Counted from the first letter of the stretch, positions 29,769 through 47,279 are shown. The stretch: DNA of 64,000 bases from Alphaproteobacteria bacterium (GCA_016869145.1 VGEU01000001.1:49234-113233), one strand, 5' to 3'. Notes: generated by a model from the sequence alone, not told the origin. A program made the numbers and translations.

Positions 29769-30394
29769 TTCAAGCCGTCCTCGCCCTTGACGTCCTTGTC
29801 CTCGAGCCCGCCCGCGCGCGCGTAGATCCGCGGCCCCGTCGCCATCGACTGGATCCAGACGATCTCGTTGGCCCGCGGCGCATCCGCGATGCGGCATTCG
29901 ATGCAGTCGAAATGGCTCCGCACATAAGCGGCATTCACATGCGCGAGCGGCACGTCGACAACCGTGCCGGGTCCGCCGACCTTCTTGGTCGACGGCACGA
30001 TCGCCTTCGACGGCTTGATGATCTGGCGCATGCCATAACCGCCGGGATCGTGCCACAGCGCGGCATGCTCGAGCTCGCCGTTCTCGCCGACGATCGCCGA
30101 TTTGCCGTAGGCCTTGATGCGCTCCTTGCCGCCGAGTGCCGCGATCAGGCGTTCGGCCATCTGGATGCCGAGCGGCTTCAACGCCTCCATCAGCGGCAGC
30201 AGGTCCTTCACATGGCGCCCGGCATAGGGGTTCGCGGTCACCGCGGCGATATAGCCCTTGAGCTGCGGCGGATCGGCCGACGGACCGAATTCGTGCAGCA
30301 CCTCCTCGACATGGAGCACGAACTTGCGGACCTTGACGAGCCCGCCCCCTTCGGTCGCCGACGCATCGCGCGCGACCGCTTTCACCTCGTTCAT
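29765..30394 (-). CDS. Amino acid synthesis family protein (PF06684/DUF1185), tandem copy 2
   Basis: 209 aa, MNEVKAVARDASATEGGGLVKVRKFVLHVEEV..., paralog of the 29184-29768 gene. Confidence 0.8.
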   Translation of the reverse strand: MNEVKAVARDASATEGGGLVKVRKFVLHVEEVLHEFGPSADPPQLKGYIAAVTANPYAGRHVKDLLPLMEALKPLGIQMAERLIAALGGKERIKAYGKSAIVGENGELEHAALWHDPGGYGMRQIIKPSKAIVPSTKKVGGPGTVVDVPLAHVNAAYVRSHFDCIECRIADAPRANEIVWIQSMATGPRIYARAGGLEDKDVKGEDGLK

Positions 30395-31260: not shown

Positions 31261-31279
31261 CTCGCACTCGGGCTCAGAT

Positions 31280-32767
31280 CTAGGCGAGCGCGGCGCTCCG
31301 GTCGAATGGCCACGGATTGTCGGGCCGCCAGGCCGACGGCTTGGCGCGCGGCATCTGCAGGACCTCCTCGATCCGCTTCATCCGGTCGGTGTAGCCGCCG
31401 AGCTCGACATAGTCCTGGTACGGCAATGTGAACTCGATCGGCGCGACGAGGGCCGGCGTCGGCACGTAGCCGAAGGCGCGATCGGGAAGACGCGTCACGT
31501 CGACCATCACGGTGATGCCGCCGCCCGGCCACACATAGACCGGCGCGCCGCCGACCGTCACGCGGGTGCGGAGATGCTTGATCGACCGTGTGAGCCGGAC
31601 CGGGTTCACCGTGACGCCCGCGCGGAGGCTGCCGCCGGCGCCGCCCATGAAGAGGACCGTGCATAGCGCCGGCTCGCAGTTCTCGCCGATGCGGTCGACG
31701 ACGAGCCGGATCGGATCGGGCATCGCCGCCGGCTTCGGTTTGAGCTGGTCATCGAGCACGAAGAAGGCCGAGTCCTCGCCGGTCGTCGAAACCATCAGGA
31801 GCCGGAGACCGGGCCACGCGGTCTTGGTGTCGATCCTCTCGACGATGGTGAGCGGGTCCTTGACGTCGGTGCCGCCCCAGCCGCTGCCGGGCTCGGCGAC
31901 CTGGAAATAGCGGCCGGGTGTCGATTTCCGCCCGCGCACACGGATGCCGGCATGCGGCATGTCGAGGAAGCGGCCGGCCTGGTGCTCGGTGAGGACGCCG
32001 GTGATATGGTCGTCGACCACGATCACCTCGTCGACATGACCGTGCCATTGCGGCGCGAAGATGCCGAGCGTCGCCGAGCCGCAGCCGACGCGCATCCGCG
32101 CCTCCTGCACGCCGTTGATGATCGGCGGCTTGCCGGCCTGGACGACGATCGTCGCGCCGTCGTCGATCGTCATCTCGACGGCTTCCTTGTTGCAGAGCGC
32201 GAGGAGCGCTGCGCAGGTCACCGTCCCCTCCTTCTTGCTGCCGCCGGTGAGATGGCGGACGCCGCCGAGCGCCAGCATCTGCGAGCCGTACTCGGCGGTC
32301 GTGACGTGACCGATCTGCTCGCCGTCGACGCGCACCGCGGCCGGCTCCGGGCCGATATAGCGGTCGGTGTCGATCTTGACCTTGACGCCGCAATAGCTGA
32401 ACACGCCCTCGCTGACGACGGTGACCATGTCGACGCCGTCATGCCGCGAGGCGACGATGAAGGGCGCCGGCTTGTAATCGGGATAGGTGGTCGTCGCGCC
32501 GATGCCGGTGACGAAGACCGGCGCATCGGGGCGCACGAGCGAGCCGTCCCAACGCTCCGCCGCCTCGAGGAAGGGCACGACCGCGCCCTTGTCGTCGACC
32601 GCGCGCTGGGTCACGACCAGCGGGTCCATGCGGACGAGCACGCCCGCGCTATTGCCGTAGCGGTCGCAGGCGCCGGTCTTCTCCGGCCTGATCCGGCACA
32701 GGACCGGGCAGGCATCGCAGGTGATGATGCCGTCCGCCTTGCCGCCGCCTTCGGTGATGTCGTTCAT
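31280..32767 (-). CDS. 6-hydroxynicotinate reductase-like iron-sulfur protein
   Basis: Start at MNDITEGGGKADGIITCDACPVLCRIRPEKTGACDRYGN (an N-terminal Cys cluster). 495 aa. A 4-nt overlap with the upstream Mo-subunit gene places it in the same operon. Confidence 0.7.
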   Translation of the reverse strand: MNDITEGGGKADGIITCDACPVLCRIRPEKTGACDRYGNSAGVLVRMDPLVVTQRAVDDKGAVVPFLEAAERWDGSLVRPDAPVFVTGIGATTTYPDYKPAPFIVASRHDGVDMVTVVSEGVFSYCGVKVKIDTDRYIGPEPAAVRVDGEQIGHVTTAEYGSQMLALGGVRHLTGGSKKEGTVTCAALLALCNKEAVEMTIDDGATIVVQAGKPPIINGVQEARMRVGCGSATLGIFAPQWHGHVDEVIVVDDHITGVLTEHQAGRFLDMPHAGIRVRGRKSTPGRYFQVAEPGSGWGGTDVKDPLTIVERIDTKTAWPGLRLLMVSTTGEDSAFFVLDDQLKPKPAAMPDPIRLVVDRIGENCEPALCTVLFMGGAGGSLRAGVTVNPVRLTRSIKHLRTRVTVGGAPVYVWPGGGITVMVDVTRLPDRAFGYVPTPALVAPIEFTLPYQDYVELGGYTDRMKRIEEVLQMPRAKPSAWRPDNPWPFDRSAALA

Positions 32768-35520
32768 GGCCGTTGTTCCTTCCGCGCCAGGATCGCCGCG
32801 CGCACGCGATCCGGTGTCGCCGGCGCCCGCCGGATGCGGACGCCGGTCGCCTGGTAAATGCCGCCGAAGATCGCGGGCGCGGTCGCGCACAGGACGTGCT
32901 CGCCGACACCCTTGGCGCCATAGGGCCCGGTCGGCTCCGGATCCTCGACGAGGATGGTCTCGATCTCCGGCACGTCGCCGAAGGTCGGGATGAGGTAGTC
33001 GTGCAGGTTCTCGGTGCGGCCGGGGATGTATTCCTCCATCAGCGCGAGACCGAGGCCCTGCGCGACGCCGCCGTGGATCTGGCCCTCGACCTGGGTCGGG
33101 TTGAGCGAGCGGCCGACGTCATGCGCGGCGACGATGCGGCGGACCTTGACGGTGCCGAGCTCGACGTCGACCTCGACCTCGGCGATCTGCGCCGCGAAGC
33201 CGTAGGTCGCGTATGGCACGCCCTGGCCCTTCTCGTCGAGCGGCTCGGTCGGCGGATCGAAATAGCCCTCCGCCATGATGACGTCCCCGTTGGGCCCGCC
33301 GGCCTCGAGCCGCCGGAGGTCGATCGTCTGCATCCGTCCGCGGTCCTCGACCACGATCGCGCCCGGCTCGAAGCGAAGCCACGCGTCCTGGCCGGCATTG
33401 GCGAGGCGGAGGATCTCGGCGCGGAGGTTCTCGCCCGCGCGCTTGGCCGCGCCGCCGGATACATAGGCCTGGCGCGAGGCCGAGGTCTTGCCCGAATCCG
33501 GCGTCAGGTCGGTATCGCCCCAGACCAGACGGAGACGGTCGACCGCGATGCCGAGCCCGTCGGCCGCGACCTGGCTCATCGTCGTGTTGGTACCCTGGCC
33601 GATGTCCTGCGCGCCCGAATAGAGCGTCACCGTGCCGTCGGCGGCGACCCCCATGCGCATGGTCGAGGGATTGGGCGCCGAGGTCGCGCCGCAGCCATAC
33701 CAGATCGCGCCCACGCCGACGCCGCGCCGGCGCACGCCGTCGCCCGTGCGGTTGAAGGCCTCCGCCTCGGCACGCGCCTTCCGCCAGTGCGGCCGGAGCG
33801 CCGCGAGGCACTCGGCGAGGCCCGCGCTCGCCTTCAGCACCTGGCCCGACGCGGTCGGCTGGCCGACCCGGATCGCGTTCTTCCAGCGGAACTCGAGCGG
33901 GTCCATGCCGATGCGCTCGGCCATCTCGTCCATCAGCGCTTCGTGCGTGATCGCGGCCTGCGGCACGCCGAAGCCGCGGAACGCCCCGGCCGGTGTCTCG
34001 TTGGTGAAGACCGCGCGCGTCTTCGCCCGCACCGCTGGCACGTGATAGGGACCCATCGCGTGGATCGGCACGCGGTCCTTCACGGTGAGGCCCCAGGATG
34101 TGTAGGCGCCGGTGTTGAAGTCCCCGAAGAACGTGAAGCCGCTGAGCGCGCCGTCCTTGGTGCAGCCGTATCGCGCGGTCATCCGCGCCGGATGGCGCTT
34201 GGTGGTGGAGGACATCGACTCGATCCGGTGGTAGACGCAGCGCACCGGCCGGTCGAGATGCCAGGCCGCGAGCGCGACGAGCGGCTGGACGGAGATGTCG
34301 AGCTTGCCGCCGAAGCCGCCGCCGCATGCGGTCGGAATGATACGGACCGCCTCGTTGGCGATGCCGAGCACCTGCGCGACCTCGTCGCGATCCATATACG
34401 GCGTCTGGGTCGTCACCGTGACCTCGACCCGGTCGCCGACGCGCCGCGCCCAGCCGGCCTCGGGCTCGATATAGGCGTGCTCGACGAACGCGGTCTCGAA
34501 CGTCCCCTCGACGACGACATCGGCGGCCGCGAGCGCGGCATCGGCATCGCCCCGCTCGACATAGCCGAAGGCGAGGATGTTGCCGGGCTTGTCGGTGTGG
34601 AGGCGGTGCGCACCCTCGGCGAGCGCGCTATCGACGCCGACGAGTGCGGTGCGCGGGGTGTAGTGGATCGGCACCTCGTCGTCGCGGATCGTCATCACGG
34701 TGTCGCGGTCGCCGACCAGCGCCGCGACCGCCTCGCCGCGGAAACGCACATCGCCGTCCGCCAGCACCGGCTGGTCCTTCACCTGCGGATAGACGCCGAA
34801 GCCGTTATTGCCCGGAACGTCGCGTGCGGTGAAGACGCGGACAAGACCGGGATATTTGCGGTGGAGCGCATCGCACGCGCCCACGGTGAAGGTCGCGCTG
34901 AAATGGGGCGAGCGCACGGCACGGAGCCAGAGCGCGTCCGCGGGCGCCTGATCGGCGCCGAAGATCTCGCGGCCGTCGAGCTTCTGGAGACCATCGACCT
35001 TGGGAAAGCGCGCACCGACCGCGCGGCCCGCATCGGGCGTGTTGTCGAGCGCCGCCGCCGGCACGCGGCCGGCGACATGGAGAACGGCGTCCACGATCTT
35101 GCGATAGCCGGTGCAGCGGCAGAGGACGCCGCCGAGCGCGTCCATCACCTCGTCCTCGCTCGGGCGCGCGGTGCGCTGGAACAGATCCGCCGCCGCCATC
35201 AGCATGCCCGGCGTGCAGATGCCGCACTGCGCGGCGTTGAAATGGTGGAAGGCCTGTTGCAGCGCGGTGAGTTTGCCGTCCTTCGCCAGGCCCTCGACCG
35301 TCTCGATGCGCCGGCCGGCGACCTGGCCGGCGGGAACCATGCACGCGCACACCTGCGCGCCGTCGAGGAAAACGGTGCAGGCGCCGCAGTCGCCGGCATC
35401 GCAGCCCACCTTGGTTCCTGTGAATCCGAGATCCTCGCGCAGCACATGGGCGAGGCGGCGGACCGGCGACACCTCGACCGAGGTTGCGCGGCCGTTGAGC
35501 GTGAAGGCGATGGTGGTCAT
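32764..35520 (-). CDS. Fused (2Fe-2S)-binding small subunit plus molybdopterin-binding large subunit of a xanthine dehydrogenase/nicotinate dehydrogenase-family hydroxylase
   Basis: 918 aa. The N-terminal part has both 2Fe-2S motifs (CDAGDCGACTV; CGICTPGM...CRCTGY). The remainder is CoxL-like with GGGFGGK, GFGVPQA and QIHGGVAQG motifs. Confidence 0.9.
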   Translation of the reverse strand: MTTIAFTLNGRATSVEVSPVRRLAHVLREDLGFTGTKVGCDAGDCGACTVFLDGAQVCACMVPAGQVAGRRIETVEGLAKDGKLTALQQAFHHFNAAQCGICTPGMLMAAADLFQRTARPSEDEVMDALGGVLCRCTGYRKIVDAVLHVAGRVPAAALDNTPDAGRAVGARFPKVDGLQKLDGREIFGADQAPADALWLRAVRSPHFSATFTVGACDALHRKYPGLVRVFTARDVPGNNGFGVYPQVKDQPVLADGDVRFRGEAVAALVGDRDTVMTIRDDEVPIHYTPRTALVGVDSALAEGAHRLHTDKPGNILAFGYVERGDADAALAAADVVVEGTFETAFVEHAYIEPEAGWARRVGDRVEVTVTTQTPYMDRDEVAQVLGIANEAVRIIPTACGGGFGGKLDISVQPLVALAAWHLDRPVRCVYHRIESMSSTTKRHPARMTARYGCTKDGALSGFTFFGDFNTGAYTSWGLTVKDRVPIHAMGPYHVPAVRAKTRAVFTNETPAGAFRGFGVPQAAITHEALMDEMAERIGMDPLEFRWKNAIRVGQPTASGQVLKASAGLAECLAALRPHWRKARAEAEAFNRTGDGVRRRGVGVGAIWYGCGATSAPNPSTMRMGVAADGTVTLYSGAQDIGQGTNTTMSQVAADGLGIAVDRLRLVWGDTDLTPDSGKTSASRQAYVSGGAAKRAGENLRAEILRLANAGQDAWLRFEPGAIVVEDRGRMQTIDLRRLEAGGPNGDVIMAEGYFDPPTEPLDEKGQGVPYATYGFAAQIAEVEVDVELGTVKVRRIVAAHDVGRSLNPTQVEGQIHGGVAQGLGLALMEEYIPGRTENLHDYLIPTFGDVPEIETILVEDPEPTGPYGAKGVGEHVLCATAPAIFGGIYQATGVRIRRAPATPDRVRAAILARKEQRP

Positions 35521-36359
35521 GTGGCGGTCCCCAGCTCGGCAAGCGCACGGCGCACCAGCGTGAGCGCCGCGTCAAGGCGATAGTCCCTGGTGCCGCGCAC
35601 GTCGTCGATCGGCGCCAGAGGTTCGAGATGGCGTGCGGTCGCGACATCGGCAAGCGCGCGCCCGATCGGGCGGCCCGCGAGCGCGGCCTCAAGGAGTGGG
35701 AGCCGACGTGCGACCGGCGCGCAGGAGCCGACGGCGATGCGCGCGGCGCCGACCGTACCGTCCGCCGCGCGCTCGATCACGGCGGCCACCATCACGATCG
35801 AGATGACGAGATATCGTCGCGCGCCGAGCTTGAGGAACGTGCTCGTCGCGACCCCGCTCGGCTTCGGGATGCGGATCGCGGTGACGAGCTCGCCCGGCAT
35901 GCGGACCGTGCGCCGGTTGCCGATGATGAACTCGGTCAAGGGGACCCGGCGCGTCCCCCGCGCCGAGGCGAGCTCGACGGCGGCATCGAGCGCGATCAGG
36001 GCCGGCACGCCGTCGGCGGCCGGCGAGGCGTTGCAGATATTGCCCGCGATGGTGCCGGCGTTCTGGACTTGGATGCCCCCCACCTCGCGCGCGGCGAGCT
36101 TCAGGGTGCGAAACCAAGCCGGCAGGTCGGCCGCGATCAAGCCGCTCCAGGTGACCAGCGCGCCGATCCGGATGTGATCGCCGGCATCCTCGATCCGCCG
36201 GAGCTCGGCGAGCGCGGAGAGGTCGAGCACGTCCTCGTCGACCACGCGTCCGACCCGCGCCGGGTAGAAATCCGTGCCGCCCGCGACGATCGCCAACGGC
36301 CGTTCGCCGAGCGCGCGGACGGCCTCCTCGACAGCGGTGGGGCGGAGATAGAAACCCAT
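35517..36359 (-). CDS. FAD-binding medium subunit of a xanthine dehydrogenase-family hydroxylase (CoxM-like)
   Basis: Start at MGFYLRPTAVEEAVRALGERPLAIVAGGTDFYP. AGGTDF and GNICNASPAADG are typical FAD-binding motifs. It overlaps the next gene by 4 nt. Confidence 0.85.
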   Translation of the reverse strand: MGFYLRPTAVEEAVRALGERPLAIVAGGTDFYPARVGRVVDEDVLDLSALAELRRIEDAGDHIRIGALVTWSGLIAADLPAWFRTLKLAAREVGGIQVQNAGTIAGNICNASPAADGVPALIALDAAVELASARGTRRVPLTEFIIGNRRTVRMPGELVTAIRIPKPSGVATSTFLKLGARRYLVISIVMVAAVIERAADGTVGAARIAVGSCAPVARRLPLLEAALAGRPIGRALADVATARHLEPLAPIDDVRGTRDYRLDAALTLVRRALAELGTAT

Positions 36360-36369
36360 CCTCGGTGCG

Positions 36370-36535
36370 CTCCCGGCTTGAAAAATTTGTTTGTATACAT
36401 ACAATAGTTCCGCCCGGCTCGCCGGCTGTCAAGCGTTCGCGCCGGCAAACAAGGCAGGTTAGCTGAGCCGCCTTCGATTGGCTTTGGCAACCCTGCGCGG
36501 TATATAGCATTCCGGCCGCGGAGAACGGTCCGTTC
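36370..36535. promoter_or_regulatory. Divergent promoter region between the Mo-hydroxylase operon and korAB, with a local AT-rich patch and palindromes (TGTATACA; GAACGGTCCGTTC)
   Basis: Sequence cttgaaaaatttgtttgtatacatacaatagttcc (about 36378-36412) and gagaacggtccgttctaa (about 36521-36538), read directly. It is unusually AT-rich for this genome. Confidence 0.4.
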
Positions 36536-36621
36536 TAAAGACATCCGTTCACGGGAGACCCCAGACCGCCCGATCCGCGGCCATGCGGCAGAACGCGTAT
36601 TCATCGTAGCGGAGCCTAACG

Positions 36622-38490
36622 ATGGCCACCAAGCTCGCGTCAGAACCCTCGGAGCGCCCGGCGCGACGGACGGTCGAGTCCGTCGTCATCCGATTCGCCG
36701 GCGATTCGGGTGACGGCATGCAGATCACCGGGACCCAGTTCACCCAATCGACCGCCCTGATGGGCAACGACCTCGCGACCTTCCCCGACTTCCCGGCCGA
36801 GATCCGGGCGCCGGTCGGCACGACCTATGGCGTGTCCGCGTTCCAGATCAACTTCGCGTCCTACGACATCATGACGCCGGGCGATGCGCCCGACGTCCTG
36901 GTCGCGATGAACCCCGCCGCGCTCAAGGTCCACCTCAAGGACGTGCGCAAGGGCGGCACGCTGATCCTGAATACGGGCGCCTTCAACGACCGCAATTTCC
37001 AGAAGGCCGGCTACAAGGCGAACCCGCTCGAGGATGGCTCGCTCGGCGGCTTCCGCGTGCTCCCGATCGATGTCTCCAAGCTGACGCTGAATGCGGTCGA
37101 GAAGACCGGGCTGTCGCAGAAGGATGCGCTCCGCTGCAAGAACTTCTGGGCGCTCGGCCTGATGTGCTGGATGTATGGACGCGAGCTGCAGCCGACGGTC
37201 GAGTGGATCAACAAGCGGTTCGAGAAACGGCCCGAGCTCGCCGCCGCCAACCTCGCCGCGCTCAAGGCCGGCCACGCCTATGGCGAGACGGCGGAGCTCT
37301 CCGGCTTCGAATCCGTCGAGGTGCCGAAGGCGCGCTCGTCGCCCGGCATCTACCGCGCGGTGACGGGCACCGAGGCGGTCGCGTGGGGTCTCGTCTGCGG
37401 CGCGCACAAGGCGGGCCTCAAGCTCTTCTTCGGCTCCTACCCGATCACGCCCGCCTCCTCCCTCCTCCACACGCTCGCCAATCTCAAGCAATACGGCGTC
37501 ACGACCTTCCAGGCCGAGGACGAGATCGCGGCCGTCTGCTCGTCGATCGGCGCATCCTATGCCGGCCAGATCGGTGTCACCTCGTCGTCGGGCCCGGGCG
37601 TCGCGCTCAAGACCGAAGCGATCGGCCTCGCCTTCGCGACCGAATTGCCGCTGATCATCGTCAACAGCCAGCGCGGCGGACCGTCGACCGGGCTGCCGAC
37701 CAAGACCGAGCAGTCCGACCTCTACCAGGCCGTGTTCGGCCGGAACGCCGATACGCCCGTTCCCGTCATCGCCTCGTCGACGCCCGGCGACTGCTTCTAT
37801 GTCGGCGTCGAGGCGGTGCGGCTCGCGACCAAGTACATGACGCCGGTGATCCTCCTCACCGACGGCTATCTCGCCAACGCGGCCGAGCCGTGGCTGATCC
37901 CCAATGTCGACGACATCGAACCGTTCCCCGTCAGCTTCGACATCGATCCCGAGGGGTTCCATCCGTTCCGGCGCGACGAGACGACGCTCGGGCGCAACTG
38001 GGCGACGCCCGGCATGCCGGGGCTGATGCACCGCATCGGCGGCATCGAGAAGGACTACAACTCGGGCCACATCTCCTACGAGTCGAACAACCACCACCAC
38101 ATGACCAAGGTCCGCGCGGCCAAGGTCAACGGCATCGCCAACGACATCCCGCTGCAGAAAGTCGCGAGCGGCACCGAGCGCGGCAAGCTCGCGGTCGTCG
38201 GCTGGGGCTCGACCTTCGGGGCGATCAACCAGGCCGTGGCGCGGAGCCGCGCGCGCGGGCTCGACGTCTCGCACATCCAGATCCGCCACATCTGGCCGCT
38301 GCCGCGCAATCTCGGCGCGCTCCTCGAGGGCTACGACAAGATCATCGTTCCCGAGATGAACAACGGCCAGCTCGTTACGCTCTTGCGGGCGCAGTATCTG
38401 GTGCCGGCCGAGGGCATCAACCAGATTTCCGGACTGCCATTCAAGGTCGCCGATCTCGAGGCCGAGATCAGCGCTCGCCTGGAGAAGTGA
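36622..38490 (+). CDS. korA: 2-oxoglutarate:ferredoxin (2-oxoacid:acceptor) oxidoreductase alpha subunit
   Basis: 622 aa, with GDSGDGMQITGTQF, the TPP-domain motif GSYPITPASS and the pyruvate/2-oxoacid ferredoxin oxidoreductase domain order. Confidence 0.9.
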   Translation: MATKLASEPSERPARRTVESVVIRFAGDSGDGMQITGTQFTQSTALMGNDLATFPDFPAEIRAPVGTTYGVSAFQINFASYDIMTPGDAPDVLVAMNPAALKVHLKDVRKGGTLILNTGAFNDRNFQKAGYKANPLEDGSLGGFRVLPIDVSKLTLNAVEKTGLSQKDALRCKNFWALGLMCWMYGRELQPTVEWINKRFEKRPELAAANLAALKAGHAYGETAELSGFESVEVPKARSSPGIYRAVTGTEAVAWGLVCGAHKAGLKLFFGSYPITPASSLLHTLANLKQYGVTTFQAEDEIAAVCSSIGASYAGQIGVTSSSGPGVALKTEAIGLAFATELPLIIVNSQRGGPSTGLPTKTEQSDLYQAVFGRNADTPVPVIASSTPGDCFYVGVEAVRLATKYMTPVILLTDGYLANAAEPWLIPNVDDIEPFPVSFDIDPEGFHPFRRDETTLGRNWATPGMPGLMHRIGGIEKDYNSGHISYESNNHHHMTKVRAAKVNGIANDIPLQKVASGTERGKLAVVGWGSTFGAINQAVARSRARGLDVSHIQIRHIWPLPRNLGALLEGYDKIIVPEMNNGQLVTLLRAQYLVPAEGINQISGLPFKVADLEAEISARLEK

Positions 38491-38491
38491 G

Positions 38492-39520
38492 ATGAACGTT
38501 CAGACCCCCGTCGCGAAGCTCACGCCCAACGACTACGCCTCCGATCAGGACGTCCGCTGGTGCCCCGGCTGCGGCGACTACGCGATCCTGAAATCCGTAC
38601 ACAAGGCGCTCGCCGACCTGCAGGCCCCGCTCGACACGACGGTGTTCATCTCGGGCATTGGCTGCGCCGCGCGCTTCCCCTATTACATGGCGACCTACGG
38701 CTTCCACACGATCCATGGCCGCGCGCCGGCGATCGCGACCGGCACCAAGCTCGCCAATCCCGATCTCGATGTCTGGGTCGTCATGGGTGACGGCGATGCG
38801 CTCTCGATCGGCGGCAATCACACGCTGCACGCGATCCGGCGCAACGTCGATCTCAACCTCCTGATGTTCAACAACGCGATCTACGGGCTGACCAAGGGCC
38901 AGTACTCGCCGACTTCGAAGGTCGGCACGCGCTCGCCCTCGACGCCTCAGGGCTCGGTCGACCAGCCGGTCAACGCGATCCTGTTCGCGCTCGGCGCCGG
39001 TGCGCGCTTCGTCGCCCGTTCGGTCGACACCAACCAGAAGCACTTGCCGGAGATGCTGAAGCGCGCGCACGCGCACAAGGGCGCCTCGTTCGTCGAGATC
39101 CTGCAGAACTGCATCGTCTACAACGACGGGGCCTTCTCCGACGTGACCGAGCGCGACGTCGCGCCCGACCGTCAGGTCGTGGTCGAGCACGGCAAGAAGC
39201 TCGTGTTCGGCAAGGACGGGAAGAAGGGTGTGCGCATGAAGCCGGGCGCGCTCGAGCTCGAGGTCGTGACGATCGGCGAGAACGGCGTAACCGAGGCCGA
39301 CATCCTGGTCCACGACGAGAAGAACCGCGCCATGGCGCTCCTCCTCGCAGGCATGGACGGCGGGGCGCTCCCGGTCGCGATGGGGGTCATCTACTGCAAT
39401 CCGGTCGAGAGCTATGACGTCGCGGTCCACAAGCAGATGCGCGAGGTGATCGAGAAGACACCGGCGATCGAATTCAACAAACTCCTCCGCCGCGGCAATA
39501 CCTGGACGGTGAACACCTGA
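38492..39520 (+). CDS. korB: 2-oxoglutarate:ferredoxin oxidoreductase beta subunit (TPP-binding)
   Basis: 342 aa, with WCPGCGDYAIL and the GDGD...N TPP-binding signature (VMGDGDALSIGGNH). Its start overlaps the korA stop. Confidence 0.9.
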   Translation: MNVQTPVAKLTPNDYASDQDVRWCPGCGDYAILKSVHKALADLQAPLDTTVFISGIGCAARFPYYMATYGFHTIHGRAPAIATGTKLANPDLDVWVVMGDGDALSIGGNHTLHAIRRNVDLNLLMFNNAIYGLTKGQYSPTSKVGTRSPSTPQGSVDQPVNAILFALGAGARFVARSVDTNQKHLPEMLKRAHAHKGASFVEILQNCIVYNDGAFSDVTERDVAPDRQVVVEHGKKLVFGKDGKKGVRMKPGALELEVVTIGENGVTEADILVHDEKNRAMALLLAGMDGGALPVAMGVIYCNPVESYDVAVHKQMREVIEKTPAIEFNKLLRRGNTWTVNT

Positions 39521-39548
39521 CCGTCGCGCGGCGGCCGGCGATGCGATC

Positions 39549-39578
39549 GGGCGGGTCCTCGACCCGCCCTTTTCGTTT
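39549..39578 (+). terminator. Rho-independent terminator after korB (GGGCGGGTC-ctc-GACCCGCCC followed by TTTTCGTTT)
   Basis: Perfect 9-bp stem, 3-nt loop and a T-tract, seen directly. Confidence 0.7.
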
Positions 39579-39679
39579 CCGGCCGACCGGAGACCGCTTG
39601 ATGCCCCGAAGGCCTTCGCTATCATGCGCGCGGGCCGATGCCAGACAGCAAGGAACGGCTCGCGTCTGGGGAGGCGAGA

Positions 39680-40999
39680 ATGGGCCGTAGCGTCGCGGTG
39701 GTCGGGTCTGGTCCGGGCGGCATGTACGCCGTCCAGCGCGTGCTCGACGAATGCGGCGACTGCCGCATCGACGTGATCGAGCGGCTGCCTTCTCCCTTCG
39801 GACTGATCCGCGGCGGCGTCGCGCCGGATCACCAGACCACCAAGAACGTGAGCCGCGCGTTCGAGAAGACCCTCCGGGATCCGCGCGTGCGCTATCTCGG
39901 CAATGTCGCGATGGGTCACGACGTGAGCCTCGCCGAGCTCGAGATCATCTACGACGCCGTCATCCTCGCCTATGGCGCGCCGTGGGACCGGAAGCTCGGC
40001 ATCCCCGGCGAGGACAAGAAGAACGTCTTCGGTTCCAACGCCTTTGTCGGCTGGTACAACTGCCATCCCGATTTCAAGGACCTCGACCCCGATCTCGACG
40101 TCGCAGGCGTTGCGGTCGTCGGCGTCGGCAACGTCGCCGTCGACTGCGCCCGCGTTCTCGCCAAGACGCCAAAGGAGATGGCGACGACCGATCTCGCCAC
40201 CTACGCGGCCGCGCGTATCCACGCGGCGCCGATCAAGGACATCTGGATGTTCGGCCGGCGCGGTCCGGCCGAGGCGGCGTTCACCAATGTCGAGCTCCGC
40301 GAGCTCGGCAAGCTCGAGGACTGCGCCACGCTCGTCGATCAGGCGCATCTTCCGGCCGCGATCGATTCGGTCGGCATGGACGACAAGGATTTTCGCGTCC
40401 GCTCGAAGAACCTCGAGACCATGCGCGGCTTCACCGGCGCCGACGCCGGCAGCAAGAAGAAGCGCATGCACATCGCCTTCTTCGCCTCACCCGTCGCCGT
40501 TCTCGGCGGCGAGCGCGTCGAGGGTATCCGGATGGAGAAGACCCGGATCGAGAAGGGACGCGCGATCGGGACCGGCGAGACCTTCGATGTGCCGTGCGGC
40601 CTCGTGATCACCTGCATCGGCTCGCGCGCGGAGGCGATCGAATCGGTTCCGTTCGACGAAAAGGCCGGCATCGTCCGCCACGAGCAGGGGCGCGTCCGGC
40701 CCGGTCTCTACGCCGTTGGCTGGGTGAAGCGCGGCGCCACCGGGACGATCGGCACGAACCGGCTCGATTCCTACGACGTCGTCGATCTGATGCTGAAGGA
40801 GATGGCCGCGCCCGACAAGCCGGGCGCGGCCGCGCTCGACCGGCTTCTGGCCGCGCGCAAGGTGCGCGTCGTCGGGCTCGCGGACTGGCAGAAGATCCAG
40901 AAGCTCGAAGAAGCGAACGCGCCCAAGGGCGCACCGCGGCGGAAATTCATCACGCCGGCGGAGATGCTGGCCGCGCTCGACAAGGCATCGGCGGCCTGA
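39680..40999 (+). CDS. FprA-type NADPH:ferredoxin (adrenodoxin) reductase
   Basis: Start at MGRSVAVVGSGPGGMY (dinucleotide-binding GxGxxG), with a second GVGNVAVD motif. The 440-aa length is typical of adrenodoxin-reductase-like FprA. Confidence 0.8.
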   Translation: MGRSVAVVGSGPGGMYAVQRVLDECGDCRIDVIERLPSPFGLIRGGVAPDHQTTKNVSRAFEKTLRDPRVRYLGNVAMGHDVSLAELEIIYDAVILAYGAPWDRKLGIPGEDKKNVFGSNAFVGWYNCHPDFKDLDPDLDVAGVAVVGVGNVAVDCARVLAKTPKEMATTDLATYAAARIHAAPIKDIWMFGRRGPAEAAFTNVELRELGKLEDCATLVDQAHLPAAIDSVGMDDKDFRVRSKNLETMRGFTGADAGSKKKRMHIAFFASPVAVLGGERVEGIRMEKTRIEKGRAIGTGETFDVPCGLVITCIGSRAEAIESVPFDEKAGIVRHEQGRVRPGLYAVGWVKRGATGTIGTNRLDSYDVVDLMLKEMAAPDKPGAAALDRLLAARKVRVVGLADWQKIQKLEEANAPKGAPRRKFITPAEMLAALDKASAA

Positions 41000-41063
41000 T
41001 CGCGCCGGAGGGCGCAACCGCTGCGAGCCGACCGGACCATTGGCGCAGCTCAGATGGCGCGGC

Positions 41064-42491
41064 TCAGATCGAGAATCCGCCGAGCTTGGTCTCGAGATAT
41101 TCCGCGATGCCGTCGTGGCCGCCCTCGCGGCCGAGCCCGCTCTCCTTCGCGCCGCCGAACGGCGCCGCCGCAGCAGTCGGGTTGATGTCGTTGATTCCGA
41201 CGATCCCGAAACGAAGCCCCTCGAACATCCGGAACGCGCGGCCGATATCGCGGGTGTAGATATAGGACGCGAGCCCGTAATGGGTGTCGTTCGCCATGGC
41301 GAGCGCATCCTCCTCGGTTTCGAAGGTGATTACCGGGGCGACCGGGCCGAAGGTCTCCTCGCGGTAGATCAGCATGTCCGGACGCACCTCGGCGAGGACG
41401 GTCGGTGCATAGAACGTGCCCTTGTCGAGGCCGTTCGAGATCAGCCGATGGCCGCCGCAGAGGAGCTTCGCGCCCTTGCCGACCGCGTCCTGAACCTGGC
41501 GATCCACCTTTGCGATCGCATCGGCATCGACTAGCGGGCCGATCGCGACGTTCTCCTCCATGCCGTCGCCGGCGCGCATCTTCTCGACCCGCGCGGTCAA
41601 CTCGCGCGTGAACGGCTCGGCGATCGAGCGGTGGACGAAGATCCGGTTCGGGCTGATGCAGGCTTGGCCCGTGTTGAGGAACTTCACGAGCGAGGCGCCG
41701 CGCGCGGCGTGGAGCGGATCGGCGTCGTCGAAGACGAGGAAGGGCGCATGGCCGCCGAGCTCGAGGCTGACGCGCTTCATCTGCGCCGCGGCGCGCGCGG
41801 CGATCATCTTGCCGATCTCGGTCGAGCCGGTGAAGGCGAGCTTGCGGATGCGCGGATCGGTGAGAAAGACATCGCCGACCGGCGCCGGGTCGAGCGCTGT
41901 GACGAGGTTCACGACGCCCTTGGGAATGCCGGCATCTGCGAATACGCGAAACATCTCGACCGCGCAGAGTGGCGTCGCCTCGGCCGGCTTCAGGACGATC
42001 GTGCAGCCGGCGGCGAGCGCCGGCCCGATCTTCCGCGTCAGCATCGAGATGGGATAGTTCCACGGCGTGATCGCGCCGACCGGGCCGACCGGCTGCTTCG
42101 CGACGATGAAACGCTGATCGCTGCGCGGCGCGGGAATGGTCTCGCCATAGACGCGCTTGGCCTCCTCCGCGTACCAGAGGAGGAAATCGGCGCCGTACTG
42201 CACCTCGTTGCGCGCGGCCCGGATCGGCTTGCCCTGCTCGGCGGTCATGGTCTTCGCGAGCTCTTCCTTGCGCTCGACCATCAGGGTCCAGGCCTTGTAG
42301 AGGAATTCCGAGCGCTGATAGGCGGTGAGCCGCGACCAGGTCGCGAAGGCGCGTGTCGCGGCGGCGACCGCATCGAGCGTGTCCTCGCGCCCACCGGCCG
42401 GCACCGTGCCGATGACCGCGCCGTTGGCGGGGTTGGTCACCTCGAACACGCCACCGTTCCGCGCCTTCCGCCACTCGCCGTCGATGTACAT
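41064..42491 (-). CDS. NAD(P)-dependent aldehyde dehydrogenase (succinate-semialdehyde dehydrogenase-like)
   Basis: 475 aa, with ELGGHAP (the catalytic Glu region), FLNTGQACISPNR (the catalytic Cys) and GxxxxG. Confidence 0.9.
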   Translation of the reverse strand: MYIDGEWRKARNGGVFEVTNPANGAVIGTVPAGGREDTLDAVAAATRAFATWSRLTAYQRSEFLYKAWTLMVERKEELAKTMTAEQGKPIRAARNEVQYGADFLLWYAEEAKRVYGETIPAPRSDQRFIVAKQPVGPVGAITPWNYPISMLTRKIGPALAAGCTIVLKPAEATPLCAVEMFRVFADAGIPKGVVNLVTALDPAPVGDVFLTDPRIRKLAFTGSTEIGKMIAARAAAQMKRVSLELGGHAPFLVFDDADPLHAARGASLVKFLNTGQACISPNRIFVHRSIAEPFTRELTARVEKMRAGDGMEENVAIGPLVDADAIAKVDRQVQDAVGKGAKLLCGGHRLISNGLDKGTFYAPTVLAEVRPDMLIYREETFGPVAPVITFETEEDALAMANDTHYGLASYIYTRDIGRAFRMFEGLRFGIVGINDINPTAAAAPFGGAKESGLGREGGHDGIAEYLETKLGGFSI

Positions 42492-42598
42492 CGCCCTCTC
42501 CCCGGTTCGATCCGATCTCCATACACCGGCCGGCGCGGTTTGACACCTGTCGGCGCCGCTGCCTACCGTTGCCCGTATCGCCAGAGGGAGACCGCGCG

Positions 42599-43003
42599 AT
42601 GGAACGCCAGCACATCAATCCGCCCGCGCTCTTCAAGCATCCGAGCTATACCCGCGTGGTCACCGTCCAGGGACCGAGCAAGCTCGTCTTCATCGCCGGC
42701 CAGACACCGTCCGACGAGACCTACCGTCCAATCGGCAAGGGCGATCTCAAGCGTCAGTACGAGCGCGTCATGGAGGCACTCGATCTCCAACTCCGGGCCG
42801 CCGGCGCGGGCTGGGACGACGTCGTCTTCCGCCGCATCTTCGTCCTCGACATGGACGCCTTCATCAAGGTCCAGACCGATCCGTCGACGACCTATCCGTG
42901 GCACCCCGACCGGCCGCCGCCCTCGACGCTGGTCGGCGTGACGAGGCTGTCGCACCCGGACTTCATGATCGAGATCGACCTGATGGCCGTCGTCGCAGCC
43001 TGA
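42599..43003 (+). CDS. RidA/YjgF-family protein (second copy)
   Basis: From MERQHINPPALFKHPSYTRVVTV... The alternative start at 42569 cannot be excluded. Confidence 0.7.
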   Translation: MERQHINPPALFKHPSYTRVVTVQGPSKLVFIAGQTPSDETYRPIGKGDLKRQYERVMEALDLQLRAAGAGWDDVVFRRIFVLDMDAFIKVQTDPSTTYPWHPDRPPPSTLVGVTRLSHPDFMIEIDLMAVVAA

Positions 43004-43006
43004 GCC

Positions 43007-43465
43007 CTATTCCGCGATCCGGGCGAGGAGGCGGACGAGCGTCTTCCGCTCCGCCGGGTCGAGGGGGCCGAGCGTCCGTTCGCTGATCGCCCGCGCGCCC
43101 TCGATCGCCGCCGTCATGAGCGCGTGGCCCGCCTCGGTCAGCGACAGGATGAGCCGCCGCCGGTCGTCGGGGTCGGGCCGGCGCGCGATGAGGCCGCGGG
43201 CGGCGAGACGCTGGATCACGCCCTGCATGGTGGCGGCGTCCATCGCGGTGAGCCGGCCCAGCTGGTTCTGCGAGGTTTCACCGACGTCGCGGAGCTTGAC
43301 CAGCGCCGCGAACTGGAGCGGCGTCAGCTGCGCGGCGCCGATGTTCTCGAGGAAGATCGCCGCGTGGCGCTGATGGGCGCGGCGGAGCAGATGCCCCACC
43401 TGCGCCTCGAGCCGGTATCCGGCCTCGGCCACGGCCTTGCCGGTCGGTCGTCCCGCCCCGTCCAT
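43007..43465 (-). CDS. MarR family transcriptional regulator
   Basis: 152 aa with a winged-helix region LTPLQFAALVKL...SQNQLGRLTAMDAATMQGVIQRLAARGLIAR. Confidence 0.85.
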   Translation of the reverse strand: MDGAGRPTGKAVAEAGYRLEAQVGHLLRRAHQRHAAIFLENIGAAQLTPLQFAALVKLRDVGETSQNQLGRLTAMDAATMQGVIQRLAARGLIARRPDPDDRRRLILSLTEAGHALMTAAIEGARAISERTLGPLDPAERKTLVRLLARIAE

Positions 43466-43523
43466 CGCGCCGCCAATCGTTCGTACACGAACGATGTCGG
43501 AGCCGGACCCGGCCTGTCAAGGA

Positions 43524-44747
43524 TCAGACGATGCTTTTGGACCGGAGCGCCGCGATCTCGGCTGGCGAGAGGCCCGCGAGACCGCGCAGCACCTCCTCGG
43601 TGTGCTGGCCGAGGGTCGGGGATGCGCGCTCATAGGCGATCGGCGTGCCGGAGAGCTTGATCGGGTTGGCCACCCCCGGCACCGAGCCGGCGGTCGGGTG
43701 CGGCAACTCGATCCGCAGCCCGCGCGCGGCGACCTGGGGATCGGCGAAGACCTGGGCGAGATCGTTGATCGGGCCGCACGGCACGCCTGCCTTGTCGAGG
43801 AGATCGATCCAGACCTGGCGCGGCCGCGTCCGCATGAAGTCGGTGATGATGGCGACGAGGGCGTCGCGATTGGCAACGCGCGAGACATTGTCCTTGAAGC
43901 GCGGATCGGCCGGGACCTCGGGACGGCCGGCGATCTCGCAGAAGCGGCGGAACTGGCCCTCGTTACCGATCGCGATGATGAGATAGTGATCCGCGGTCGG
44001 GAACGCCTGGTAGGGCACGATGTTGGGATGGGCGTTTCCCATCCGCACCGGTGCGACGCCGGTGACGAGGTAGTTGAGCGCCTGGTTCGCCATGCACGCG
44101 GTCGTCACGTCGAACAGCGCCATATCGACGTGCTGGCCTTCGCCGGTCTCAGCACGGCTGCGGAGCGCGGCGAGCGCGGCCACGGCCGTGTAGAGCCCGG
44201 TCAGGATGTCTGAGAGCGCGACGCCGATCTTCTGCGGCCCGCCGCCCGGCTTGTCGTCGGCCTCGCCCGTCACGCTCATCATGCCGGCGAGGCCCTGGAT
44301 CATGAAGTCGTAGCCGGCGCGCTCGGCGTTGGGGCCGGTCTGCCCGAAGCCGGTGATCGAGCAGTAGATGAGGCCGCGGTTCAGCTTGCGGAGGTCGTCA
44401 TAGCCGAGGCCGTAGCGGGCGAGACCGCCGACCTTGTAGTTCTCGATCAGGATGTCGGACGTCGCGGCGAGACGACGGATGACGTCCTGGCCTTCGGGTG
44501 TCGCGATGTCGAGCGTGACCGAGCGCTTGCCGCGGTTCGTCGACTGGAAATAGGCCGCCTCGGTCGTCGGCCGTCCGTCCGGCCCCTTGAGGAAAGGCGG
44601 GCCCCACGCGCGGGTGTCGTCGCCGGCGCCGGGGCGCTCGATCTTGATCACGTCGGCGCCGAGATCGGCCAACAGCTGACCGCACCACGGGCCTGCGAGA
44701 ACGCGGCTCAGATCGAGCACGCGAATGCCGACGAGGGGACCGCTCAT
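43524..44747 (-). CDS. CoA-transferase family III (CaiB/BaiF) protein, a candidate glutarate or dicarboxylate CoA-transferase
   Basis: Start at [37 protein letters not shown], a typical family III N-terminus, with the conserved Asp region (GYDFMIQ). Confidence 0.85.
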   Translation of the reverse strand: MSGPLVGIRVLDLSRVLAGPWCGQLLADLGADVIKIERPGAGDDTRAWGPPFLKGPDGRPTTEAAYFQSTNRGKRSVTLDIATPEGQDVIRRLAATSDILIENYKVGGLARYGLGYDDLRKLNRGLIYCSITGFGQTGPNAERAGYDFMIQGLAGMMSVTGEADDKPGGGPQKIGVALSDILTGLYTAVAALAALRSRAETGEGQHVDMALFDVTTACMANQALNYLVTGVAPVRMGNAHPNIVPYQAFPTADHYLIIAIGNEGQFRRFCEIAGRPEVPADPRFKDNVSRVANRDALVAIITDFMRTRPRQVWIDLLDKAGVPCGPINDLAQVFADPQVAARGLRIELPHPTAGSVPGVANPIKLSGTPIAYERASPTLGQHTEEVLRGLAGLSPAEIAALRSKSIV

Positions 44748-45961
44748 CAGCCGGTGAACGCCTGGATGCCGGTCTGTGCGCGGCCGAGGATGAGCGCGTG
44801 GATGTCGTGCGTGCCCTCGTAGGTGTTGATGGTCTCGAGATTCATCATGTGGCGGATGACGTGGTACTCGTCGACGATGCCGTTGCCGCCGTGCATGTCG
44901 CGGGCCAAGCGCGCGATGTCGAGCGCCTTGCCGGTCGAATTGCGCTTGACGAGCGAGATCGCCTCGGGCGCGCATTTGCCCTCGTCCATCAGCCGTCCGA
45001 GACGGAGACACGCGTGCAGCCCGAGCGTGATCTCGGTCTGCATGTCGGCGAGCTTCTTCTGGATGAGCTGGTTGGCCGCGAGCGGGCGACCGAACTGGCT
45101 GCGGTCGAGCGTGTACTGGCGCGCGGCGTGCCAGCAGAACTCGGCCGCGCCGAGAGCGCCCCAGCAGATGCCGTAGCGGGCGTTGTTGAGGCAGCCGAAC
45201 GGTCCGCCGAGCCCGCGCGCTTCGGGCAGCATGTTCTCCGCAGGCACGAACACGTCATCGAGCGCGATCGTGCCGGTCTGCGAGGCGCGGAGCGAGAACT
45301 TGCCGTCGATCTTGACGGTCGAGAGCCCTTTCATGCCGCGCTCGAGGATGAAACCGCGGATCGTGCCCTCGTCGTCCTTGGCCCAGATCACGAACACGTC
45401 GGCGAAGGGCGCATTCGAGATCCAGGTCTTCGATCCCTTGAGCACAAAGCCGCCGTCGACCTTGCGGGCACGGGTCTTCATGCCACCGGGATCGGAGCCA
45501 TGGTCCGGCTCGGTGAGGCCGAAGCATCCGGCGAGCTCGCCGGTCGCGAGACGCGGTAGGTATTTCACCCGATGCGCCTCGGTGCCATAGGTGTAGATCG
45601 GCCACATCACGAGCGAGGACTGGACCGAGAGCGTCGAGCGGTAGGCACCGTCCACCCGCTCGATCTCGCGCGCGATCAGCCCGTAGGCGACATAGCTCGC
45701 GCCGGCACAGCCATAGCCGTCGAGCGTCGAGCCGAGGAAGCCCATCTCGCCCATCTGGTTGAGGAGCGCGCGATCGAAGGTCTCGTGGCGGTTGGCCTGG
45801 ACGATGCCGGGCATCAGCTTCTCGGCCGCGAACTCGCGCGCGGCATCGCGGATCAGCTTCTCGTCCTCGCCGAGGAGATCGTCGAAGAGGAGCGGATCCT
45901 CCCACTGGAAATTCGCCCACTTCTTGACCTTGGGGCCGGCCGTCGCGGCGTCTAGTGCCAT
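44747..45961 (-). CDS. gcdH: Glutaryl-CoA dehydrogenase (acyl-CoA dehydrogenase family)
   Basis: Start at MALDAATAG; 404 aa. It has the typical GcdH N-terminus ([17 protein letters not shown]) and the C-terminal [14 protein letters not shown] motif. Confidence 0.85.
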
Positions 45962-46001
45962 CGCGTGCTCCTTTGGTGCGCGTGGTGCGCGGCGGATCCG
46001 G

Positions 46002-47060
46002 TCAGCCGAACTTCTTCTTGGCCGCATCGAGGAAGCTGAGGTCGACCATGGTCTCGTAGGTCTGCGTCTTGACCTTGGTCGCCTCGCTGAACCAGACCTT
46101 GCCGCCATTCTCGAACTGAGCCCGCGTGATCACGCCGTTGTAGTCGTAGATCGGCTTGAGATACGCGATCTCGCGCATCGCCACCTCGGGCTTAAAGTTG
46201 CCCATGAACCGGCCCTCGACGGTCTTGTAGAGCTGCTCGGGCGTGCTGTTCTTGATCAACTGGAGGGCGCGATAGACGGCGTTGACGATGCCTTGGGTCA
46301 GCGCGGGCTTGGCCTTGATCTGCTCCTCGAGCGCGAACAGGCACTGGCCCGCGAAGGCGGAGCCGAAGAACTTGTTCCACAGCGCATCGTCGGTGGCGTT
46401 GAACGCGGCCTCGCCCAGCTTCTCGTCGGCGATGGCGAAGAAGATCAGGGTGTTCGCCATGCAGGCGTCGACCTTGCCGCTCTTGAAGGCCCCGATCATC
46501 GGCGCGCCGTCGCCGGTCGAGACGAAGTTGACGTTGTCGAGGAGACCGGCCTTCAGAAACATGTGGGAGCCATAGAGCCAGCTCTGCGCGCCGACGCGCG
46601 TGACGGCGATCTGCGGCTTGGTGCCGTCGGGCTTCTTCAGATTGCCGAGCGCCTCGACGGTGCGGATACCCTTCTCCCACAACTCGTTCCGAACCATCAG
46701 GGTCATCGTGGCGCGGGTGTCGAGGCCCATCATGATCTTGGCCGACTTGCCGGCGCCGGTGAGATAGAGCGGATGGATCACGTCGCCCTGGGCATACGGC
46801 ATCTGCCCGGCCGCGACCATCTGGCGGGTGTTGGTGCCGGCGGCGCCGGTGACGACGCGGCCGTTGATGCCCTCGTCCTTGAAGTAGCCGGCGGCGGAAG
46901 CGACCATGAACTGGAGGCTGTTCGAGGTCTCGACCGGGATGCCGAGCAGCATCTCCTCCGCCTGCGCCCGGGCCGCACCGGCCCAGGTGAACGAGTAAAG
47001 CTTGGTCGCGGCCACGGCCCCGGTGCCGGCCAACATCGTCCGGCGATTGATCCCACTCAT
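46002..47060 (-). CDS. ABC-transporter-type periplasmic substrate-binding protein (NMT1/SsuA/TauA-like) with a Tat signal
   Basis: Start at [32 protein letters not shown] (twin-arginine motif). No ABC permease or ATPase genes are adjacent. Confidence 0.75.
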
Positions 47061-47279
47061 CGTCGCGCTCTCCCTTGGTCGATGCGAGCCGCGTCGGTAT
47101 GGCGGCGGCCCTGGCAGCCAGTCCAACTCATGTTCTCGAAGGCCGGACTATAACGTCTCATCGGCCTCGGGCAACGCCAAACGGCCGGCGATCGGCCGCG
47201 CCGAGCCGATCAAGTTGACTCGCTCAAGCGGCCCCTGCGATGGTGGCGACGCCGCCAACCGACAAGCTTGGAGTTCGCC

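Follow-up and report, generated by a model that had tools for sequence, protein, structure and literature searches.

Background

KorAB, a two-subunit 2-oxoglutarate:ferredoxin oxidoreductase, has been described in bacterial catabolic clusters devoted to the low-potential reduction of aromatic rings. Here, we analyze a 64,000-nucleotide stretch of an Alphaproteobacteria bacterium assembly (GCA_016869145.1, VGEU01000001.1:49234-113233; hereafter, the window), in which korA, korB, and the gene of an adrenodoxin-reductase (AdR)-like protein, fprA, lie divergently from an operon encoding a homologue of 6-hydroxynicotinate reductase (Hnr). Linkage of korAB to hnr recurs across related genomes, and in the window's clade it is accompanied by a conserved operator motif. 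We lean towards the explanation that the locus is a large cluster for nicotinate breakdown, of the kind found in Azorhizobium and Eubacterium barkeri, to which korAB-fprA was recruited to supply the reductase with electrons.

The closest precedent is Thauera aromatica, in which KorAB supplies benzoyl-CoA (coenzyme A) reductase, as related in PMC9973337 with reference to Dorner & Boll 2002. R. palustris BisB5 and BisA53 carry korAB in their benzoate clusters, and other strains use a different donor encoded elsewhere (PMC9973337). By analogy, the window has a two-subunit oxidoreductase of this kind inside a catabolic cluster with low-potential aromatic-ring reduction, and the patchy distribution of korAB among hnr clusters recalls that among the R. 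palustris benzoate clusters. Unlike in Thauera, the ring is a pyridone (6-hydroxynicotinate), the reductase is Hnr and not an ATP-dependent benzoyl-CoA reductase, an AdR-type FprA accompanies korAB, the regulator is a BpsR-type MarR protein, and the hosts are probably aerobic alphaproteobacteria. Both Thauera and R. palustris encode a ferredoxin (Fdx/BadB), whereas no ferredoxin gene was found in the window's cluster.

Nicotinate catabolism in E. barkeri and Azorhizobium follows a route that, as outlined in PMC3511419, passes through 1,4,5,6-tetrahydro-6-oxonicotinate (THON) and glutarate. The same source places proteobacterial hnr clusters in A. caulinodans (AZC_2790-2804), B. japonicum (blr3818-3830), R. 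palustris HaA2, and strain SG-6C; its account of the cluster covers the three genes that open the pathway, an ABC transporter, and two uncharacterized proteins, with neither korAB nor fprA nor any donor system among them (PMC3511419). The window shares with these clusters the molybdenum (Mo) hydroxylase, the Hnr homologue, an amidohydrolase, two conserved unknowns, and downstream glutarate catabolism. Unlike them, its clade adds korAB-fprA, which in the window is tied to genes for a CoA-transferase and an acyl-CoA dehydrogenase. To our knowledge, no electron donor has so far been assigned to 6-hydroxynicotinate reductase in aerobic proteobacteria, and the ferredoxin dependence of Hnr is known from E. 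barkeri only. Within the limited literature collection searched, we found no paper connecting nicotinate catabolism to a 2-oxoacid:ferredoxin oxidoreductase.

The individual components have better-studied relatives. M. tuberculosis KorAB (Rv2454c-Rv2455c) is an aerotolerant two-subunit enzyme making succinyl-CoA, with its physiological acceptor still to be found (PMC2773412). Together with M. tuberculosis FprA (1lqt), it represents the same two families as in the window and an oxidoreductase type that works in aerobes, there in central metabolism and here in a catabolic island. As far as we know, the KorAB and FprA genes of M. tuberculosis are not adjacent. The best solved relative of both KorAB subunits is the 2-oxoglutarate oxidoreductase (OGOR) of Magnetococcus marinus (6n2n), whose WCPGCG motif is kept in the window; unlike that enzyme, the window's KorB has an unaligned C-terminal extension of ~130 residues. 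Work by Ebenau-Jehle and colleagues from 2003 reportedly described a three-subunit 2-oxoglutarate:NADP+ oxidoreductase in Azoarcus evansii, in which KorAB is joined to an NADP(H)-linked flavoprotein and which is induced for aromatic-ring reduction; the flavoprotein is said to be a larger Fe-S/FAD (flavin adenine dinucleotide) protein within the complex. The window's FprA differs from it in being a 47-kDa AdR-type protein without an Fe-S domain that is probably transcribed separately.

Results

korA (36622-38490, + strand) encodes the alpha subunit of a two-subunit 2-oxoacid:ferredoxin oxidoreductase. The protein combines a fused gamma (POR) domain with POR_N and PFOR_II, as do the alpha subunits of the OAFO/KorAB (OGOR-type) enzymes; it scores 626.8 bits in a profile search against TIGR03710 (cut-off 482.75), and its closest solved structure is Magnetococcus OGOR chain 6n2n_A (E 1e-71). 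korB (38492-39520, + strand), which starts 1 nt past the korA stop, encodes the thiamine pyrophosphate (TPP)/[4Fe-4S] beta subunit, with matches to TPP_enzyme_C (3.7e-31) and to 6n2n_B (E 1e-58) and with the WCPGCG motif (the N-terminal CxxC of the [4Fe-4S] site) aligned with the M. marinus beta chain; its score against TIGR02177 is slightly below the cut-off (258.9 versus 261.9 bits). Pfam found no Fer4 domain in KorA or KorB, and a delta subunit or domain, ferredoxin-like with 2x[4Fe-4S], is absent, in keeping with the OAFO/KorAB class. The substrate would be 2-oxoglutarate, judging from the nearest solved structure, an OGOR (6n2n), with no equivalog model above its cut-off.

fprA (39680-40999, + strand) encodes an adrenodoxin-reductase/FprA-type NADPH:ferredoxin reductase. 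Residues 19-444 give a full-length match to M. tuberculosis FprA (1lqt, E 1.6e-91), the match to bovine adrenodoxin reductase (1cjc) is as close (E 2e-91), and both the VGSGPGG motif (the N-terminal GxGxxG, for FAD) and the GVGNVAVD motif (the second dinucleotide-binding site) align. From this similarity, the product is predicted to reduce a ferredoxin with NADPH. The start at 39680 is likelier than the alternative at 39638, because a Joint Genome Institute (JGI) gene call begins there and a GGAGG ribosome-binding site lies 7 nt upstream. Throughout the window (~67% GC), third-position GC clearly marks the coding frames. The preliminary description of this locus had assigned korA, korB, and the adrenodoxin-reductase-like gene in the same way, and the domain, TIGR03710, 6n2n, and 1lqt/1cjc matches bear these assignments out.

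On the opposite side of the intergenic region, a six-gene nicotinate operon recognized by Pfam and NCBIfam matches (29184-36359, − strand) encodes, in order, a xanthine-dehydrogenase-type FAD subunit (35517-36359), a fused 2Fe-2S/Mo (molybdopterin) subunit of the hydroxylase (32764-35520), the 495-residue Hnr homologue (31280-32767), a UPF0280 protein (30391-31260), and two AA_synth (PF06684) proteins (29765-30394 and 29184-29759). The genes are tightly coupled through ATGA start/stop overlaps or gaps of ≤ 19 nt. These coordinates confirm the divergent layout noted earlier, with korAB and fprA on one side and the operon containing the 6-hydroxynicotinate reductase-like protein on the other. 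The assignment as Hnr is putative and taken from the names of homologues: proteins 72-83% identical to it are called 6-hydroxynicotinate reductase at NCBI and JGI. Pfam and NCBIfam models gave no match to Hnr (a permissive Pfam search returned sub-threshold noise only), a sequence search of the PDB found no solved relative, and an AlphaFold2 model built from a 13-sequence alignment had a mean pLDDT of 45.7, too low for a fold reading. Its invariant cysteines, C17-x2-C20-x3-C24-x9-C34 plus five more, are consistent with an iron-sulfur enzyme.

We surveyed the surroundings of Hnr homologues (65-76% identity) in 80 genome loci, searching each locus with all of the window's proteins. A Mo subunit lies beside hnr in 71 of them. 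korA is found within 10 kb of hnr in 7 loci, which corresponds to 7 of the 62 loci having at least 2 kb of upstream sequence; the rate expected by chance is roughly estimated at ~0.4% per locus (one korAB, 20 kb out of a ~5 Mb genome). The linkage recurs in three gene orders (L-numbers denote related loci). In L006, korAB is divergent from the FAD-Mo-hnr genes in the same arrangement as in the window. In L002, L007, and L053, korA is directly divergent from hnr, and MarR, CoA-transferase, and acyl-CoA dehydrogenase genes follow past fprA. L014 and L015 carry a co-directional korA-korB-fprA-FAD-Mo-hnr-UPF0280 series with gaps of ≤ 56 nt. The seventh locus, L067, has korA 2.2 kb from the FAD subunit gene, and we treat it as a weak case because two unrelated genes, for a cation-efflux protein and an ABC membrane protein, intervene. 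fprA accompanies korAB in 5 of the 7 linked loci (6 of 8 with the window); it was not detected in L006 or L067. Linkage to korAB is not a general feature of hnr clusters.

A neighbor-joining (NJ) tree of 88 KorA sequences with bootstrapping places the KorA proteins of the window, L006, L007, L053, L002, and L081 in one clade with 100% support, and all six are hnr-linked. Those of L014/L015 and of L067 never join this clade. By our reading, korAB was joined to hnr clusters at least twice, perhaps in three independent KorA lineages, and the window's lineage kept the link through rearrangements and large base-composition shifts. A reverse survey of the 80 nearest KorA homologues in metagenomes recovered an hnr neighbor in one locus only, L081, which holds the nearest KorA of all and was thus found without hnr as bait. 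Among hnr-free loci in this set, fprA lies directly upstream or downstream of korAB in L083, L086, L093, L096, L104, L114, L116, L122, and L130. Since 79 of the 80 KorA loci lack hnr and ~10 have fprA, the korAB-fprA module has an independent existence; we read it as a pre-existing module, and its recurrent pairing may constitute a 2-oxoglutarate-to-NADP+ electron route.

The region shared by the divergent genes (36360-36621, 262 bp) was aligned with that of relatives. It had been described as AT-rich, which does not apply to the whole (59.5% GC, against ~67% in the window) and is true of 36376-36410 only (26% GC). Within that segment lies an 18-bp palindrome, TTGTTTGTATACATACAA (36387-36404), which stands 28 nt from the FAD-subunit ATG, occurs once in the window, and is one mismatch short of perfect; TGTATACA (36393-36400) is its center. 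Comparable palindromes arise in ~10% of dinucleotide shuffles of the spacer, so on its own it is not beyond chance. It gains significance, alone of the two palindromes in the spacer, because it is conserved in relatives: the motif TYGTWYGTATACRWACRA occurs 0-135 nt upstream of the FAD/hnr operon in ~27 loci, 21 of which have a BpsR-like MarR gene within 10 kb, and random segments of the same loci match it far worse. In L002, L081, L053, and L006, a second copy stands 33-70 nt upstream of korA, directly after a TTGACA box; L007 has a single copy, ~90 nt upstream of korA.

The operator overlaps a sigma-70-like promoter, TTGAAA-16-TACAAT (36378-36405, + strand), that points towards korA and is proposed from its consensus match (10 of 12 positions; 0.1 expected in shuffles). 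On the other strand, a conserved TTGACA (36427-36432) is the likely −35 element of the hnr-operon promoter; in the spacer alignment, the CTGTCAAG block is kept in the window, L006, L002, L081, and L053. The −10 element of this promoter would abut or overlap the edge of the operator. As both promoters meet at a single operator, one repressor dimer could control both directions.

The candidate repressor is the MarR protein encoded at 43007-43465 (− strand). It matches Bordetella BpsR (6pcp/6pco, E 1e-31) with residues 15-151 aligned to chain positions 13-149, an offset of +2, by which its Y17, H25, R28, and H34 sit at BpsR positions Tyr15, His23, Arg26, and His32. These four residues bind 6-hydroxynicotinate (6-HNA) in BpsR, which represses nic genes and responds to that compound (PMC6837509). 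All of the 6-HNA ligand residues are thus kept, and as with BpsR the gene adjoins nicotinate genes. Unlike BpsR, which is associated with the maleamate-route genes nicC/nicE, the window's MarR would control a THON-route cluster including korAB; the likeness to BpsR is one of protein sequence and ligand residues. From the co-occurrence of palindrome and MarR gene, we predict that this MarR binds 36387-36404 and is released by 6-HNA. Conservation of the operator, its second copy before korA in relatives, and the 6-HNA residues kept by the MarR make a good, if indirect, case for placing korAB in a 6-HNA-responsive regulon in the window's clade. An Rfam scan of 36200-41200 returned no RNA family and so gives no support to a known riboswitch in the leader of korA.

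The second palindrome, to which we assign no function, is the perfect 15-bp AGAACGGTCCGTTCT (36522-36536), 86 nt upstream of the korA ATG; GAACGGTCCGTTC forms part of it. It is unique in the window and occupies the site of the korA-proximal operator of relatives. A palindrome as good appears in 7% of dinucleotide shuffles of the spacer, and a search of 160 related loci found it conserved in none, on which ground we rejected it as a common operator. It reflects either chance or a lineage-specific operator swap. The earlier proposal that the palindromes of TGTATACA and GAACGGTCCGTTC form a common operator is therefore upheld for the former, which is conserved, has a BpsR-type MarR gene nearby, and is duplicated before korA in relatives, and fails for the latter, which is conserved nowhere.

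Directly 3′ of korB, an intrinsic-terminator-like hairpin (39549-39569, + strand) of nine pairs, eight of them G-C, is followed by a T-run, and a promoter-like site, TTGATG-16-TATCAT (39598-39625, + strand), stands upstream of fprA. L002 has an equally strong terminator hairpin between korB and fprA, and a TATCAT/TATGAT-like element precedes fprA in L002 and L053 as well. In L014, L015, and several hnr-free loci, the korB-fprA gap is 2-56 nt without a hairpin. Given the hairpin and the promoter-like site, fprA is probably its own transcription unit in the window's clade, without a nic operator, and it is bound to the pathway less closely than korAB.

Pathway genes flank korAB-fprA on both sides in the window, L002, L007, and L053, so the module is embedded between two sets of them. 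The gene content of the window matches the THON route of E. barkeri and Azorhizobium. Past the hnr operon lie two metallo-beta-lactamase-fold genes, an amidohydrolase gene, and an isochorismatase-family gene. On the other side, an aldehyde dehydrogenase (41064-42491, − strand) is a candidate glutarate-semialdehyde dehydrogenase of this route, a putative role taken from the pathway account in PMC3511419. Beyond the MarR gene, a family III CoA-transferase (43524-44747, − strand) and an acyl-CoA dehydrogenase (44747-45961, − strand) are candidates for glutarate activation and glutaryl-CoA oxidation, respectively. Work by Kitts from 1992 is also said to bear on the role of the aldehyde dehydrogenase.

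A search for other electron carriers gave no candidate. The window contains no open reading frame (ORF) with a CxxCxxCxxxCP motif and none picked out by rubredoxin or Rieske motif scans; the dedicated ferredoxin gene that Thauera has in the same cluster is missing here. Near hnr, no alternative electron-supply gene emerged when conserved ORFs of the 80 loci were clustered, which yielded only ABC-transporter and hydantoinase families.

Discussion

On balance, the comparative genomics favors korAB and the hnr pathway being functionally connected in the window's clade. We propose that, in this lineage, korAB-fprA existed as a module beforehand, entered the cluster between two operons of the pathway, and came under the control of the pathway regulator. 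Nicotinate would be converted through 6-hydroxynicotinate and THON to glutarate and glutaryl-CoA. The BpsR-like MarR would repress at 36387-36404, overlapping the back-to-back promoters, until binding of 6-hydroxynicotinate releases it. KorAB would then turn 2-oxoglutarate and CoA into succinyl-CoA and CO2 while reducing a ferredoxin encoded elsewhere, and the reduced ferredoxin would pass two electrons to the putative iron-sulfur enzyme Hnr for reduction of the pyridine ring. The succinyl-CoA made by KorAB could be used by the neighboring CoA-transferase for glutarate activation. FprA, probably transcribed alone, would keep this ferredoxin pool in equilibrium with NADP(H) and may reuse NADPH made by the FAD-containing hydroxylase. 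The preliminary description had read the co-location as a sign that KorAB or FprA feeds the reductase; this reading fares well for korAB, with its recurrent linkage and operator, and weakly for fprA, which appears to be a separate transcription unit.

Several observations weigh against such a role. No korAB is nearby in 73 of the 80 hnr loci (~90%), all sampled cultured strains included; 79 of the 80 nearest KorA loci are without hnr, and ~10 of those 80 have fprA next to korAB but lack hnr in the vicinity. The operator copy that relatives carry near korA is absent from the window, where an unrelated, unconserved palindrome stands instead, and the window's fprA is preceded by a terminator-like hairpin and a separate promoter-like site. 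Motif scans of the 64-kb window and of the eight linked loci turned up no ORF of ferredoxin type. The specificity of KorAB for 2-oxoglutarate is a putative assignment, and ferredoxin use by Hnr is extrapolated from the E. barkeri enzyme, to which a proteobacterial homologue is 42% identical (PMC3511419). These counts of loci, the different palindrome in place of a nic operator near korA, and the missing ferredoxin gene would also suit a neighborhood that is coincidental and confined to a few lineages, in which korAB-fprA is a housekeeping module for a variant tricarboxylic acid (TCA) cycle that converts 2-oxoglutarate to succinyl-CoA and passes electrons to NADP+ via ferredoxin and FprA, with no dedicated role in the pathway; the M. 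tuberculosis KorAB is just such an aerotolerant enzyme of central metabolism (PMC2773412). However, the linkage came about on two or more occasions and has outlasted three rearrangements, every member of a KorA clade supported by 100% of bootstraps is hnr-linked, nic operators lie directly upstream of korA in relatives, and the module sits between pathway operons and not at the edge of the cluster. We regard coincidence as unlikely.

Two further accounts keep a role for the module and assign it differently. KorAB might be retained mainly for its carbon product, providing succinyl-CoA to a succinyl-CoA:glutarate CoA-transferase while FprA passes the electrons to NADP+, so that the two form a functional 2-oxoglutarate:NADP+ oxidoreductase and the donor of Hnr lies elsewhere. 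Azorhizobium reportedly activates glutarate with succinyl-CoA (Kitts, in work of 1992), fprA-korB-korA adjoins the MarR-CoA-transferase-acyl-CoA dehydrogenase genes in L002, L007, and L053 as in the window, and the korAB-fprA pairing recurs without hnr. In L014, L015, and L006, however, korAB keeps company with the hydroxylase-hnr genes, and neither the CoA-transferase nor the acyl-CoA dehydrogenase was detected in the sequence covered; moreover, succinyl-CoA is a plentiful TCA intermediate in aerobes, for which a dedicated source seems unneeded. We judge this account quite unlikely as the main reason for the linkage, and it is compatible with electron supply by KorAB, not exclusive of it. Alternatively, FprA could be the relevant donor and KorAB a passenger, with NADPH from the hydroxylase passing through FprA to ferredoxin, or directly, to Hnr, which would make the conversion of nicotinate to THON redox-neutral. 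The hydroxylase does have a xanthine-dehydrogenase-type FAD subunit, FprA is a full-length AdR/FprA homologue, and fprA is present in most of the linked loci (5 of 7, or 6 of 8 with the window), standing directly upstream of the FAD subunit gene in L014/L015. Yet L006 and L067 show the linkage to hnr with no fprA detected, and both the window and L002 have a terminator ahead of fprA and no nic operator for it. NADPH is also a weaker reductant than the 2-oxoglutarate couple, and the E. barkeri reaction uses ferredoxin; we consider FprA very unlikely to be the principal donor.

One more arrangement can be drawn up, which we hold to be highly doubtful. There would be no soluble ferredoxin at all, and KorAB and/or FprA would dock directly on the invariant N-terminal Cys4 iron-sulfur module of Hnr. 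Aerobic alphaproteobacteria would then possess a pyridine-ring reductase complete in itself and powered by 2-oxoglutarate (or NADPH), in which one 2-oxoglutarate would give both the two electrons for the ring and the succinyl-CoA for activating glutarate, 1:1:1 per nicotinate.

If recruitment of korAB-fprA to supply Hnr is correct, the locus would be a second case, after benzoyl-CoA reduction, of KorAB drawn into a catabolic island for dearomatizing chemistry, here on an N-heterocycle and in presumed aerobes. It would offer a concrete in vitro system in which Hnr and KorAB are combined with 2-oxoglutarate and CoA, ferredoxin or FprA being optional additions. The 18-bp operator would define a BpsR-type regulon extending beyond the classical nic genes, and the korAB-fprA pairing, which is widespread but poorly understood, would gain a suggested function in physiology.

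Additional features of the locus

Two protein families recur with hnr. A UPF0280 gene follows hnr in 71 of the 80 hnr loci, and two PF06684 ‘AA_synth’ genes come next in 42 of them; these proteins are conserved unknowns of the THON route. UPF0280 has only a sub-threshold match to ApbE (E 0.019), and it might assist Hnr in flavin attachment or maturation. Between the aldehyde dehydrogenase and MarR genes lies a RidA/YjgF-family gene (42599-43003), and an imine/enamine deaminase of this family could bear on ring-opened intermediates.

Hydantoinase genes are also found around hnr, with Hydantoinase A in 26 and Hydantoinase B in 18 of the 80 loci (e.g., L014 12141-14393, L004 19675-21423). The window itself has two tandem Hydantoinase_B paralogs at 15955-20310, and no Hydantoinase_A was seen there. 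Ring opening may be carried out by hydantoinases as an alternative to the enamidase-like amidohydrolase.

Further along the window, four UbiD-family decarboxylase paralogs (47154-48686 and 53660-55204 on the + strand, 55853-57313 and 57376-59112 on the − strand) are interspersed with an MFS transporter, two TctC-type receptors, and a quinolinate-phosphoribosyltransferase-like gene, and the region looks like a funnel for pyridine-(di)carboxylates beside the nicotinate genes. Three Mo-hydroxylase large subunits are encoded in the 64 kb (13516-15954, 32764-35520, and 59375-62194), which together with the other genes suggests a large catabolic island for N-heterocycles.

The window comes from an uncultured organism, as its overlap with a metagenome contig indicates. 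Its nearest relatives are Rhodospirillales-like alphaproteobacterial metagenome-assembled genomes, and the hosts of the linked cluster are probably aerobic alphaproteobacteria. Positions 36607-47379 of the window overlap a JGI metagenome contig, Ga0194131_10011205 (sample 3300020193; our L161).

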